Shown: positions 17,985 to 21,668, counted from the stretch's first letter. The stretch is 64,000 nt of DNA from a virus (IMGVR_UViG_3300026980_000004); one strand, 5' to 3'. Numbers and translations: made by a program. The notes: a model not told the origin generated them from the letters alone.

Positions 17985-18152
17985 GTTGTGAATACCTTTC
18001 AATTGTTGGGTATATACAACCTGCTCATATCTGTAACATTACTCACATCCGTTGTGAATACCTTTCATTTGTTGGTAATTCACAACTTCAGTTACGCAAC
18101 GATACCTTGGGCTAGCGTTGTGAATACCTTTCAATTCATAATAAATAATTAA
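17985..18152 (+). CRISPR. mini CRISPR array 1: two full 36-bp repeats, two 30-bp spacers, one truncated third repeat
   Basis: Repeats at 17985-18020, 18051-18086 and partial 18117-18136. Spacers CTGCTCATATCTGTAACATTACTCACATCC and TTCAGTTACGCAACGATACCTTGGGCTAGC. Confidence 0.8.
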
Positions 18153-18181
18153 TCAACAGATTTGCCGATTATCGGTTGAAG

Positions 18182-18269
18182 ATATCAATAAAATAAAGGT
18201 ACTTTCCGAGTGGATTAATCCCTCAGATTAAGGCTGCACAACCAGCCTAATTGCACTTTCTGCAATCCT
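18182..18269. ncRNA. 88-nt conserved array-flanking element, copy 1 (candidate tracrRNA / omega-RNA-like scaffold or leader)
   Basis: Identical to 20191-20278. Contains hairpins GGCTG-CACAACC-CAGCC and ATTGCA-CTTTC-TGCAAT. Segment CAATAAAATAAAGGTAC is partly complementary to the repeat core ATACCTTTCATTTGTTG. Confidence 0.45.
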
Positions 18270-18281
18270 GTTTATAATATA

Positions 18282-18488
18282 TTATCTTTCCATTGGTTTA
18301 AATGCTGTTAACATTGAACCTATAATCCAAATAAGTAATAATATTCTTTTTAATTCTGATGTTAGTTCAACAAATTCCCACTTAACAAATGAATATCCTA
18401 AATAGAACATACAAATAATGATTCCCCATAAAACTAGAGATAAAACAACCCAAAAAAGGTATTCAAGAATTATATAAATTATTTCCAT
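18282..18488 (-). CDS. small two-TM membrane protein
   Basis: 68-aa hydrophobic ORF. Confidence 0.35.
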   Translation of the reverse strand: MEIIYIILEYLFWVVLSLVLWGIIICMFYLGYSFVKWEFVELTSELKRILLLIWIIGSMLTAFKPMER

Positions 18489-18493
18489 GTATT

Positions 18494-19726
18494 TTATTTT
18501 TTTAAATTAATTAGTATATTATTTAGATGATTAAAATCTGGATTTTCTCTTAAAGATGAATTTTTATAAAGATCAGGTAACAAAGATATGATATTTTCTG
18601 TATAATCCAAAATATCATTATAATTAACTTTACCTAATTTAATATTTAATAAAAATTCTTTATCTTCTATTCTTTTTAGAATAATACCTTTACCTTCTCC
18701 AATTTCTTTGCACATTGTTAATAATCTTGCACAATGTGCCAAATTTTTTACATCATATTTTTGACCCAGATTATTTTTATATCTTTCTGGATTACGTTTT
18801 TTAACCCATTCTTGATATTCACGATAGTCTTTTAAATATGTTTCATATCCTTCTAAATTATAATACATAAATCCTAGCTGTTCAATGTCATACCATTGTG
18901 ATTCTTCTGGGATTTTAGGTATTGATGATAATCTTAATTGATTAGAATCTTTTTCTGGGTGTACAATACCCTTAAATTTGGCAAATTTAAATCTTTTTTT
19001 ACGATATTCAATAAAATCGGTTATACTTTTATTTGGAAATAATTCCTTATACCAAGTAATTTCCTTATCAATTCTATCTGTAAAGTACGTCAAAGAATGA
19101 TTATCAACAAATACCTCATATGTTGATTTACAATTTTTTAAACCCCTTAATCCAATAAATTTTTGATCAATATCAGAATCTTTTAAATATTTTGATATTT
19201 TAATTGGTTTAGAATATTTTTTAGTTGAATTATAAAAATAACAAAAATCCAATATAGATTTCTTTTTAACTGGAATTGGATTGTTCATTTTTTTATTTAA
19301 TCCAGTCGCCTTTTTAATTTGAGATGTTGCATACTTACCAAAAGTATCTAAACATTTTTTCGATATTATCATATTTAAATCAAATAGTTCAATATATTCA
19401 GATTTTATAATACAATTATCATTGATTTTAGCCGATGCTAATAGTTCAATTGCATTTGGATTATTTTTATATAATAATTCAATAAATTTACCAATTTCAA
19501 TATATGTTACGTCATTATCTGGTGTATTCGATATTACAGTATCAAAAGGATTTAACTTATATTCTAATGAATTATAATCTTCATTTTTTAATTTAAACAC
19601 ACCATAATAATCCTTATCTGATTTTTCTGTCTGTAAATTTTGTGAATATGAACCTATTAATGTTTTAAATATAACCAAATTATTTGATTCAATATATTCA
19701 ACAGTATATTTATCTTTTATTTTCAT
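18494..19726 (-). CDS. pol-beta-superfamily nucleotidyltransferase-like protein (GS-x9-SDxD motif), function unknown
   Basis: GSYSQNLQTEKSDKDYY near the N-terminus. The 410-aa gene sits between the two CRISPR arrays. Confidence 0.35.
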   Translation of the reverse strand: MKIKDKYTVEYIESNNLVIFKTLIGSYSQNLQTEKSDKDYYGVFKLKNEDYNSLEYKLNPFDTVISNTPDNDVTYIEIGKFIELLYKNNPNAIELLASAKINDNCIIKSEYIELFDLNMIISKKCLDTFGKYATSQIKKATGLNKKMNNPIPVKKKSILDFCYFYNSTKKYSKPIKISKYLKDSDIDQKFIGLRGLKNCKSTYEVFVDNHSLTYFTDRIDKEITWYKELFPNKSITDFIEYRKKRFKFAKFKGIVHPEKDSNQLRLSSIPKIPEESQWYDIEQLGFMYYNLEGYETYLKDYREYQEWVKKRNPERYKNNLGQKYDVKNLAHCARLLTMCKEIGEGKGIILKRIEDKEFLLNIKLGKVNYNDILDYTENIISLLPDLYKNSSLRENPDFNHLNNILINLKK

Positions 19727-19743
19727 ATTTTTTAGATTGGATT

Positions 19744-20168
19744 GTTGTGTATACCTTTCATTTGTTGGGTAGTGACAACTGAGCGTTTCGATGCTGTAAT
19801 TTTTTATAGTTGTGAATACCTTTCATTTGTTGGGTAGTGACAACCCAGATTTTGAATTAGAATACGATAATTTGGTTGTGAATACCTTTCATTTGTTGGG
19901 TATATACAACGGAAATTTGCCCAGAAACCTCATTGTTGTGAATACCTTTCATTTGTTGGGTAGTGACAACGCACCGACAGGTACTATTGCAGCAACAGAT
20001 GTTGTGAATACCTTTCATTTGTTGGGTAGTGACAACTAACTTGAAGAAATTTAATGCTGATTCACTGTTGTGAATACCTTTCATTTGTTGGGTAGTGACA
20101 ACGAAACCTATTGATTCATCTACCTCACTAATGTTGTGAATACCTTTCATTTGTTGGGTACATACAAC
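19744..20168 (+). CRISPR. mini CRISPR array 2: seven 36-bp repeats (first with 1 mismatch, some with variant 3' ends), six spacers of 24-30 bp
   Basis: Repeat GTTGTGAATACCTTTCATTTGTTGGGTAGTGACAAC at 19744, 19809, 19875, 19935, 20001, 20067 and 20133. Confidence 0.9.
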
Positions 20169-20190
20169 ATCACAATATATAACCAATTGT

Positions 20191-20278
20191 ATATCAATAA
20201 AATAAAGGTACTTTCCGAGTGGATTAATCCCTCAGATTAAGGCTGCACAACCAGCCTAATTGCACTTTCTGCAATCCT
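20191..20278. ncRNA. 88-nt conserved element, copy 2, abutting and overlapping the stop codon of the Cas12/TnpB-like gene
   Basis: Identical to copy 1 over 88 nt. Located exactly where a TnpB right-end/omega-RNA scaffold or a Cas12f tracrRNA would lie. Confidence 0.45.
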
Positions 20279-21668
20279 ATTTTTTAAATTCGGTACTTAA
20301 TGAAATATTTTTTGCTCCGTTAAAATCGGCATGTATTTCTTTTCCAAAGATACTACATTTTTCATTAAGACAAGTAAATATTTGTTTATTTCTTGCAGTT
20401 TTTTCAATATTTCCACATTTATGACATTTTTGTGATGTATAAGCTGGATTTATTTTTCTTACAACAATATTATGTTTTTTTGCTTTATACATTATTTTTT
20501 CTTGGATACCATAATATCCCCAGATTCTCATAATATATTTTTTATTTTCCGTCAAATTCTCTTTATAATTCTCTAAATTTTCAATATTAATATATTTACA
20601 ATTATTATTTAGTGCCTCTTTAATAACGGAATTTGATATTTTGTGTTGTTCGGTGTTAGTCCAGTTTTTTTCAACTTTTTTTAATTTATCTAAAGCAGAT
20701 AATTTCTTTTTTCTACCTCTACCACCATTCGATATTTCCAGATTTTTAATTAATGATGTATATCTTTTTTTATATTGTAATTTATGTGAATCAAAGTGAT
20801 GAATATCACCTATTTGTTTTTTATAATAATCATTATCATTAATTGCAAGATAAACAGGTGCGTTCACCCCCAAGTCAACACCTAAAACTTTATTATCATC
20901 TAATTTTATTGTGTTATCCAATGGTTGTTTAAATGATAATAATAGAAATATTTTTTTATCTTTAAATTGTATGGCGGAATCACACAATTTATATTTATCG
21001 GTATCATTAATAATATGTTCAATAATTGCTTTATTATTTGATCTATCAGGACCAAAAAATAAACCAAAATTATAACCGAATAAATTTATATAATACTTAC
21101 CATTATCAAACTTAAAAAATAAACTAGGGTCTTTCACTAATTTACCGCTAATATTAAATGGAATAGGTAAACCTCTTTTATATATATTTAATGTTGATTT
21201 TCCAAGAAAATATTCCTTTTCTTTGATTTTATAATCATTTTCAATCTTTTTAGATAAAGATGCACTAATACTGGATAAACCTTTGGGTAATCGTTTGTTT
21301 ATATTATGATATACTAATGTAGTCTCTTTTGAATCATTATATATCATTTTTTTATATTCTTCATTATTCGAATATTTATTAATAATATCTCTATTTTGAT
21401 TCTTTAGTTCAATAAATTCAGTGGATTTAAAATTTTTAATTTCTGACATCTTATTGAGATTATTCACATATTTCTCATAATCTTCTTTATTGTGTTTTAG
21501 GATAAACTCGGGTAAGTTTTTCTTGATATGTAAATAATTAACACTGTCGTTAGCAATTTTATATAGATTATTATTTAAATAATGAAGTAAGTCGTAACAC
21601 TCATTTTTTTTATTACCTTCTTCATTAACAAATAATTCTATTTTTCTGGTTAATGTAATTTGTTCCAT
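20277..21668 (-). CDS. compact RuvC-type RNA-guided nuclease candidate (TnpB/Cas12f-like, 463 aa)
   Basis: RuvC-I GVDLGVNAPVYLAIND. RuvC-II YINIENL. Zn ribbon CHKCGN...CLNEKC. RuvC-III IHADFNGAKNISL. Adjacent to CRISPR array 2. Confidence 0.75.
   Translation of the reverse strand: MEQITLTRKIELFVNEEGNKKNECYDLLHYLNNNLYKIANDSVNYLHIKKNLPEFILKHNKEDYEKYVNNLNKMSEIKNFKSTEFIELKNQNRDIINKYSNNEEYKKMIYNDSKETTLVYHNINKRLPKGLSSISASLSKKIENDYKIKEKEYFLGKSTLNIYKRGLPIPFNISGKLVKDPSLFFKFDNGKYYINLFGYNFGLFFGPDRSNNKAIIEHIINDTDKYKLCDSAIQFKDKKIFLLLSFKQPLDNTIKLDDNKVLGVDLGVNAPVYLAINDNDYYKKQIGDIHHFDSHKLQYKKRYTSLIKNLEISNGGRGRKKKLSALDKLKKVEKNWTNTEQHKISNSVIKEALNNNCKYINIENLENYKENLTENKKYIMRIWGYYGIQEKIMYKAKKHNIVVRKINPAYTSQKCHKCGNIEKTARNKQIFTCLNEKCSIFGKEIHADFNGAKNISLSTEFKK

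Follow-up and report, generated by a model that had tools for sequence, protein, structure and literature searches.

The 64,000-nucleotide (nt) stretch of viral DNA IMGVR_UViG_3300026980_000004, hereafter the window, harbors a compact minus-strand locus at positions 17985 to 21668 which comprises a gene for a nuclease of 463 amino acids (aa), two CRISPR arrays and a structured RNA element in two copies. We hold with good confidence that this locus is a phage-encoded CRISPR-Cas interference module of type V-F without adaptation genes, with a Cas12f effector of the V-U3/Al3Cas12f-MG119-like clade; judging from its sequence, the system is probably functional. The initial annotation of this DNA had proposed a miniature type V-like locus of TnpB/Cas12f architecture, and profile as well as structure comparisons bear this out and place the effector with Cas12f, not with TnpB. 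The absence of cas1, cas2 and cas4 had likewise been seen correctly: no Pfam match to Cas1, Cas2 or Cas4 is present at E<=0.01 in the 34 open reading frames (ORFs) between positions 9030 and 34358, which cover about 11 kb on each side of the locus, and none is found among the strong matches for the whole window either.

The window is phage DNA, as it encodes a Gp23-type major capsid protein (550 aa; Pfam 1.1e-72, phrog_138) and members of many PHROG families. The nearest database relatives of the capsid protein belong to uncultured huge or jumbo phages (30-40% identity). Since the best of them, LR756511 (595 kb) and LR756508 (484 kb), are both uncultured huge phages, the window probably derives from a jumbo phage. 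The guanine-cytosine (GC) content ranges from 22 to 34% across the window, with 27% overall, and the locus shows no compositional break. A megablast search of the locus against GenBank phages gave no match and no close relative, and an Rfam scan of the whole window matched no family.

The Cas12f effector

The translation of the minus-strand effector gene contains all motifs that had been quoted for an intact nuclease, namely GVDLGV (RuvC-I), INIENL (RuvC-II), the C4 zinc ribbon CHKCG...C..C and HADFNGAKNI (RuvC-III). The RuvC residues D265 (I), E363 (II) and D448 (III) and the four zinc-ribbon cysteines C415, C418, C433 and C438 are invariant in the clade (12-sequence alignment A2). Profile searches gave 64.7 bits for Pfam Cas12f1-like_TNB (cut-off 26.3), with no HTH_OrfB_IS605 domain in the effector according to Pfam, and nearly full-length matches to the PADLOC profiles Cas12u3 (285 bits) and Cas12f (283 bits). 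The NCBIfam models Cas12f2 (NF049972; 72.8 bits, cut-off 450) and IS607_TnpB (21 bits, cut-off 350) remained below threshold. On these scores the effector is not a Cas12f2 and fits the V-U3/Cas12f1-like profile.

In a phmmer search against the Protein Data Bank (PDB), the best match was Al3Cas12f (9NZO/9NZR; E=4e-59, residues 4-460, ~30% identity), followed by CnCas12f1, RhCas12f, AsCas12f, SpCas12f1, OsCas12f and Un1Cas12f1. The top 14 matches are all Cas12f proteins, some of them deposited as generic transposase or TnpB, and no genuine TnpB structure was retrieved at E<=1. An AlphaFold model built from the 12-sequence alignment reached a mean predicted local distance difference test score (pLDDT) of 83.5. 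When it was compared with the PDB by Foldseek, all of the 20 best matches were Cas12f structures, with a template modeling (TM) score of 0.71 for Al3Cas12f as against 0.41-0.47 for the TnpB proteins of ISDra2 and ISFba1 and ~0.35 for CasPhi (Cas12j) and CasLambda. The domain architecture and the fold are common to AsCas12f1, SpCas12f1, CnCas12f1, OsCas12f and Un1Cas12f1 (Cas14a1), with Foldseek E-values of 1e-15 to 1e-26. Characterized Cas12f1-type effectors are miniature nucleases that depend on a trans-activating CRISPR RNA (tracrRNA); the 463-aa protein is 19-29% identical to them. By sequence and by modeled fold, this protein is a bona fide Cas12f. Cas14a-type loci carry cas1, cas2 and cas4, whereas the locus described here does not.

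A separate IS607-type unit had been noted in the same genome, and it is indeed present on the minus strand at 47082-48827, where a serine recombinase gene (48261-48827, 188 aa, Resolvase 1.4e-19) lies immediately upstream of a gene for a TnpB of 392 aa (47082-48260). The idea that the effector had been recruited from this lineage found no support, as the two proteins share 25% identity over only 117 aa (E=0.019). There is no sign of recruitment within this phage, because the effector is a member of a clade of Cas12f which is established and common among viral contigs.

Arrays, tracrRNA genes and the predicted guide

The two arrays share a 36-nt repeat, as described before. Seven copies with at most three mismatches make up array 2 at 19744-20168, where they had been located together with six spacers, and none was obtained in 100 shuffles. 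Ten exact copies of the 17-nt repeat core TGAAAGGTATTCACAAC are present in the window (expected 0.02), all of them on the minus strand, with seven in array 2, three in array 1 and none elsewhere. The six spacers of array 2 measure 24-30 nt and the two of array 1 both 30 nt. For array 1 the spacer count had been correct, but the array ends at 18137 instead of 18152: of its third repeat, the one next to the leader, just the 3' handle of 20-21 nt is left (18117-18137), with conservation over about 20 nt only.

The repeat had been given on the plus strand; its functional orientation is the minus strand, on which it reads GTTGTCACTACCCAACAAATGAAAGGTATTCACAAC and is followed by the spacer, a conserved 3' handle AAAUGAAAGGUAUUCACAAC standing before each spacer. 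The plus-strand reading is ruled out by this handle, by the degenerate terminal repeats, by the order of gene, tracrRNA and array in all relatives and by the complementarity between loop and repeat tail described below. Substitutions among the repeats lie in the 5' part of the minus-strand repeat, the sole change in a handle being that of the terminal repeat 19744-19779, after which no spacer follows. The 5' part is dispensable, and this pattern of degeneracy is explained by a mature guide that consists of the 3' handle and the spacer in a minus-strand CRISPR RNA (crRNA). Searches with the handle in 185,579 species genomes and in metagenomes returned only single chance matches inside coding sequences, and these scans revealed no host array with the repeat.

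Each array is flanked by one copy of a 99-nt direct repeat (D4; 18182-18280 and 20191-20289, 96% identical) whose 29-nt core occurs exactly twice in the window. On comparative evidence, this duplicated element is a tracrRNA gene in two copies, because the pairing of its loop and tail covaries in relatives and because it matches the validated Al3Cas12f and MG119 guide RNAs. The structured region of 82 nt is identical in both copies; copy 2 begins at the stop codon of cas12f and copy 1 just past the stop codon of a 68-aa ORF. The minimum free energy fold of the minus strand shows three hairpins, which in copy 2 extend over 20276-20258 (stem 1), 20257-20240 (stem 2, with the pseudoknot loop GUUGUG at 20251-20246) and 20236-20214 (stem 3), with the anti-repeat tail AAGUACCUUUAUUU... 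at 20213-20195.

The same element lies directly 3' of the cas12f stop codon in two related viral contigs, L001 and L002, whose proteins are 88% and 70% identical to the effector, and it is also present in the viral contig L003. Compensatory substitutions were found in both arms of all three hairpins in these contigs. In the unedited MAFFT alignment of the element (alignment A1), standard pairs fill 89.8% of the cells as against 30-49% with the partners slid by 1-3 columns, 9 of 20 pairs show changes in both partners, and in 500 shuffles of the columns the observed covariation was never reached. The three-stem plan is shared with the experimentally validated guide RNAs of Al3Cas12f, Cas12f-MG119-2 and Cas12f-MG119-3 (sequences in the supplement of PMC13186708), as seen in a structural alignment that was made by hand and leans towards structure. 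This plan comprises hairpin 1, a GC-rich hairpin 2 with a GUUGNN loop, a long-range UNUGAG/CUCNNA stem around a variable insert, and a 3' tail complementary to the repeat. In view of structure covariation and homology to the validated single guide RNAs (sgRNAs), the reading of the 99-nt element as a mere leader or terminator was rejected. Another candidate anti-repeat, inside the 68-aa ORF (18446-18465, 80% complementary), was rejected as a chance occurrence, as many inverted repeats just as good exist in this AT-rich region and no counterpart is found in relatives.

The loop GUUGUG of stem 2 is the exact complement of CACAAC, the last six bases of every minus-strand repeat. Across the relatives this complementarity of loop and repeat tail is kept by means of six different hexamer pairs: GUUGUG/CACAAC (window, L003, L036), GUUGUA/UACAAC (L013, L038), GUUGGA/UCCAAC (L015, L025 and the published Al3Cas12f sgRNA), GCUGCA/UGCAGC (L059), GCUGUA/UACAGC (L061, L066, L075) and AUUUUG/CAAAAU (L032, L035, L037). 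A strict automatic test looked for GC-rich hairpins with loops of six bases and required the reverse complement of the loop to appear again downstream at the spacing of a CRISPR array; it was passed by 15 of 35 regions compared with a background of 4.7% for arbitrary upstream hexamers. Furthermore, the tracrRNA tail AGUACCUUU is able to pair with AAAGGUAUU of the repeat, and this anti-repeat covaries in L002, where the tail ACCAU stands against AUGGU in the partial first repeat at the contig end. From the loop/tail and anti-repeat pairing in the window and its relatives we infer both the identity of the tracrRNA and a minus-strand crRNA, in which the mature guide is ...AAAUGAAAGGUAUUCACAAC plus spacer.

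By analogy with characterized systems, one or more minus-strand transcripts would yield the tracrRNA and the crRNAs. The tracrRNA of ~82 nt would fold into its three hairpins, its 3' tail would pair with the complementary segment of each repeat and the GUUGUG loop would form a pseudoknot with CACAAC, resulting in a tracrRNA:crRNA guide with the spacer at its 3' end. As reported for Al3Cas12f and other Cas12f proteins (PMC13186708), a Cas12f dimer would load one such guide. Following the example of Al3Cas12f, the complex would recognize a T-rich protospacer adjacent motif (PAM) on the 5' side, and a single RuvC site would cut both strands of complementary double-stranded DNA. The predicted crRNAs consist of ...GGUAUUCACAAC and the spacer, and the predicted single guide is GAUUGCAGAAAGUGCAAUUAGGCUGGUUGUGCAGCCUUAAUCUGAGGGAUUAAUCCACUCGGAAAGUACCUUU-GAAA-AAAGGUAUUCACAAC-N20, with a scaffold of about 90-100 nt.

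The closest characterized system is described for the Al3Cas12f/Cas12f-MG119 family of type V-F (Nat Struct Mol Biol 2026, PMC13186708; PDB 9NZO/9NZR). Al3Cas12f resembles the system of the window in its full-length homology, guide-RNA plan, mini-arrays and lack of cas1, cas2 and cas4. It differs in protein length (488 versus 463 aa, with only ~30% identity) and in its scaffold of 134 nt, in which an insertion of ~50 nt in stem 3 takes the place of a 10-nt hairpin in the window. In addition, the module of tracrRNA and array is duplicated in the window, and the replicon is a large phage, compared with a contig assigned to Alistipes.

The arrays and the duplicated element also bear on the view that the locus is an ordinary IS200/IS605 or IS607 TnpB transposon, with the repeats as transposon-end or satellite sequence and the structured RNA as an omega-RNA, which we consider highly improbable. 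The effector does pass the cut-off of the NCBIfam guided_TnpB model (126 versus 100 bits), a broad superfamily-level model which is also satisfied by Cas12f proteins, but it lacks the HTH_OrfB_IS605 domain and is much closer to Cas12f than to TnpB in sequence and fold. Although the structured RNA resembles an omega-RNA in that it begins where the gene has its 3' end, the place of a single guide is taken by ten repeat units and eight different spacers, the repeat is confined to the two arrays within the window, and the arrays of relatives carry different spacers. A genuine IS607-like unit exists elsewhere in the window, yet no TnpA lies beside the effector gene, whose neighboring ORFs have no transposase match, and the nearest one (48261-48827) has a TnpB of its own. 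What the Cas12f locus does share with the TnpB/omega-RNA systems of IS200/IS605 and IS607 is the ancestral RuvC and zinc-ribbon core, a scaffold whose start coincides with the 3' end of the nuclease gene, and a guide at the 3' end of the RNA. In contrast to them, it has a guide split into tracrRNA and crRNA, multi-spacer arrays, no transposase or transposon ends, and an extra N-terminal REC/WED region in the effector, as in Cas12f.

Spacers, targets and probable use

The spacers had been described as much GC-richer than a phage of 25% GC. Their mean of ~38% (range 27-52%) does exceed the phage value, but the window has 27% GC and only some spacers are clearly richer. No spacer matches the window itself, and only chance-level matches were obtained with GenBank phages. 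Against plasmids, array 2 spacers gave no match and array 1 gave one match of 26/27 in a DUF285 gene on a Campylobacter plasmid. A search of IMG/VR for exact copies of the 22-nt PAM-proximal seeds found none for spacers 2, 6 and 8, and among 93 retrieved loci no spacer was matched except spacer 1. The seed of spacer 1 is found as 22/22 in five related viral contigs (~35% GC), with 25/30 over the full length. The match falls in a 673-aa protein full of DUF285-type repeats, and the spacer codes for WDVSNVT, a conserved motif. A foreign origin of spacer 1 is suggested by this match. The proposal that the spacers are aimed at other replicons thus agrees with the missing self-matches and with the partial match of spacer 1 in foreign viral contigs, but the latter concerns one spacer of eight, and the spacer sequences hint only weakly at such targets.

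By analogy with other phage-encoded systems, the most likely use of the module in the course of an infection is against mobile elements that compete with the phage, for example other phages or integrative elements. A serious alternative, albeit an unlikely one, is that the functional system is aimed at the host, that is at its chromosome, defense islands or resident prophages, for takeover or counter-defense. Phage CRISPR systems acting against host defense elements are known (reviewed in PMC11656645), and for Cas12r of Thermus phages the targets are mostly integrative elements that reside in the genomes of hosts (Cas12r preprint). The mean spacer GC content above that of the phage would fit a GC-richer replicon such as a host genome, and the DUF285 repeat motif of spacer 1 is present in bacterial replicons as well, but the best spacer match in the searches of GenBank phages, plasmids and IMG/VR is to viral contigs.

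Several observations weigh against a type V-F interference module. Neither adaptation genes nor a host array of this repeat turned up in the scans as a source of new spacers. Seven of the eight spacers are without a target in GenBank phages, plasmids, the IMG/VR search with the seeds of spacers 2, 6 and 8, and the 93 loci. The sole spacer match is imperfect and lies on a widely conserved DUF285 peptide motif that also occurs on the Campylobacter plasmid, and for this reason it does not fix the true target. It does not fix the PAM either; its 5' flank, ..CTTTATG, departs from the TTR PAM used for Al3Cas12f. Moreover, the anti-repeat duplex is short and AU-rich; since its energy is no better than that of shuffled repeats, the anti-repeat pairing rests on homology and covariation in the compared sequences and not on thermodynamics. 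A promoter and terminator scan of the tracrRNAs and arrays gave none that was convincing. As an upstream ORF has its stop codon where each tracrRNA copy begins, and no separate promoter was detected, the tracrRNAs are probably made from the 3' ends of upstream mRNAs, as omega-RNAs are.

The lack of adaptation genes, the small size of the arrays and the seven spacers without known target would also be expected of a decaying or repurposed remnant, with fossil arrays or with a non-cleaving RNA-guided repressor like dCas12f or Cas12m. We regard such a remnant as improbable. One repeat is truncated and several carry substitutions, but these are restricted to the 5' part or to terminal repeats, and the crRNA handle is perfectly conserved before every spacer. 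Likewise, the RuvC triad is intact, as is the zinc ribbon, and both are invariant throughout the clade. The tracrRNA copies do not differ from each other, and in related contigs a covarying tracrRNA accompanies the gene, which has kept 88% and 70% identity.

Relatives, guide cassettes and genomic surroundings

In IMG/VR, a single-protein search found nothing, and an alignment-based scan was needed to detect relatives, which are encoded by 71 viral contigs at 23-43% identity; several of these contigs are 140-365 kb long. Among the contigs that match better, the majority carry a mini-array, which lies 100-500 nt downstream of the gene, and in a dozen the gene has arrays on both sides. Distant metagenome homologues (32-37% identity) show the gene, a tracrRNA and a mini-array of 2-4 repeats, without adaptation genes, whereas a search of JGI metagenomes with the tracrRNA pattern gave no match. 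Compared with these loci, the architecture of the window is typical of the phage-associated Cas12f clade. In L001 the locus is syntenic, with cas12f adjoining a gene for a 376-aa protein. Because cas12f of L001 lies in the same neighborhood, the locus is a stable part of this phage lineage. L001 also carries a 393-aa TnpB inserted ~0.5 kb upstream of cas12f.

Phages with compact type V loci that lack adaptation genes have been on record since 2020. A phage-encoded miniature type V system is unsurprising to the specialist, the family is abundant in public viral contigs, and the understanding of type V systems is unchanged by the locus. Many virus-encoded CRISPR systems lack adaptation genes (reviewed in PMC11656645), and Cas12f-clade proteins with compact arrays are known from huge phages (PMC11748809). 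CasPhi, CasLambda, Cas12r of the Thermus Lalka phages and the Cas12f-clade proteins of soil huge phages all resemble the system of the window as virus-encoded single-effector type V systems with a compact array and no adaptation module. All of them presumably take part in conflicts of mobile elements, which for the phage-encoded Cas12r has been demonstrated by experiment (Cas12r preprint). CasPhi and CasLambda, at 700-800 aa, process their crRNA themselves, are independent of a tracrRNA and structurally distant (TM ~0.35), in contrast to the tracrRNA-dependent V-F effector of 463 aa. Among tracrRNA-dependent Cas12f systems of large phages, this locus is a further example, well resolved and apparently intact, and its guide is fully annotated with regard to strand, tracrRNA, anti-repeat and pseudoknot. 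With its 463-aa effector and its naturally minimized scaffold, it ranks among the more compact Cas12f designs, which makes it a reasonable candidate for genome-editing work.

The tracrRNA sequence is duplicated not only in the window but also in L036, L040 and L055, with arrays on both sides of the effector gene in L036 and L055. The two arrays of L036 (4531-4961 and 6322-6924) have repeats that differ in the 5' part and share a common 3' handle. Duplication of the guide module is thus recurrent in the clade. L003 (3300037605_000008) contains a solitary tracrRNA with a two-repeat, one-spacer array at 9820-10040, directly downstream of a gene for a tyrosine integrase (Phage_integrase and Arm-DNA-bind_5), and neither a Cas12f homologue nor an adjacent cas gene within the 11.5 kb examined. 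Because the 15 nt before this tracrRNA are identical to the 3' end of the cas12f ORF of the window, the contig points to a loss of the effector or to copying of the guide cassette by itself. In L004 (3300009868_000033, 1917-3330), a gene for a canonical TnpB of 406 aa (HTH_OrfB_IS605, OrfB_IS605 and TNB) is followed at a distance of ~25 nt by an array with three repeats, each of which ends in the 20 nt AAATGAAAGGTATACACAAC, identical to the crRNA handle in the systems of the window and of L003. No recognizable tracrRNA lies between the TnpB gene and the array, and the similarity of this TnpB to the Cas12f is marginal (E=0.002 over 75 aa).

The second module of the window, the solitary module of L003, the handle of L004 and the duplications in L036, L040 and L055 would all fit a tracrRNA and mini-array that form a portable, self-contained guide cassette, spreading and duplicating independently of cas12f, a tentative idea that we consider possible although rather doubtful. 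Duplicated and, in relatives, solitary modules of tracrRNA and array suggest that guide cassettes may be exchanged among phages. If cassettes did spread independently, a co-infecting or resident element could provide the Cas12f for them in trans, and the strategy of viral mini-arrays would be extended to tracrRNA-dependent systems. Like the virus-borne mini-arrays reviewed in PMC11656645, array 1 has two spacers and the array of L003 a single one. In the classical viral mini-arrays, however, the repeat of the host is copied and the Cas protein of the host is used (PMC11656645), whereas the phage of the window supplies its own effector and one tracrRNA per array.

The features of the locus are listed in Table 1. 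In the direction of the minus strand, cas12f is followed by a tracrRNA gene, array 2, two ORFs, the identical second tracrRNA gene and array 1. Array 2 starts 108 nt past the stop codon of cas12f, and array 1 lies another 2 kb on. The linker of copy 1 departs from the linker sequence of copy 2 beyond the first few bases.

Table 1. Features of the Cas12f locus in the order of the minus strand (positions refer to the window).
Feature	Position	Strand	Evidence
cas12f effector gene, 463 aa	20277..21668	-	translation
tracrRNA gene copy 2	20195..20276	-	fold, covariation, structural match to validated sgRNAs
linker/leader, tracrRNA copy 2 to first repeat of array 2	20169..20194	-	sequence; conserved in viral contig L003
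CRISPR array 2: 7 repeats, 6 spacers	19744..20168	-	repeat search
two ORFs between the tracrRNA-array modules	18282..19726	-	Pfam search
tracrRNA gene copy 1	18186..18267	-	direct repeat D4, alignment A1
linker/leader, tracrRNA copy 1 to array 1	18138..18185	-	sequence, alignment A1
CRISPR array 1: 3 repeats, 2 spacers	17985..18137	-	repeat search

The intervening ORFs encode a 410-aa RlaP-like nucleotidyltransferase (18494-19726, minus strand; Pfam RlaP E=3.9e-10) and the 68-aa protein, for which no family match was obtained; both are probably cargo unrelated to the CRISPR function. Beside array 1, the minus strand carries a gene for a Thg1-like tRNA-His guanylyltransferase (17136-17942; Pfam 1.5e-24). 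The window also encodes an enzyme of the PolyA_pol/CCA-adding type and shows a weak match to the C-terminal part of T4 Rnl2. Together, the Thg1-like, RlaP-like, PolyA_pol/CCA-adding-type and Rnl2 matches suggest a phage tRNA/RNA repair set that is interleaved with the CRISPR locus.

Further genes of the window include the capsid gene, which is directly followed by a gene for a 649-aa protein matching HNH/homing endonuclease PHROGs (2e-39; 5295-8977, plus strand), and a gene for an 826-aa ClpB/Lon-like AAA+ protein (44088-46568, minus strand; phrog_4871 'ATP-dependent protease', E=1e-254; Pfam AAA_2 and ClpB_D2-small). A Mom-family protein is encoded as well. At 60435-63650 on the plus strand, a type IIG restriction-modification enzyme of 1071 aa (PADLOC REase_MTase_IIG E=0; Pfam Eco57I, MmeI_Mtase and TaqI_C) represents a second nucleic-acid-targeting system of the same phage genome.

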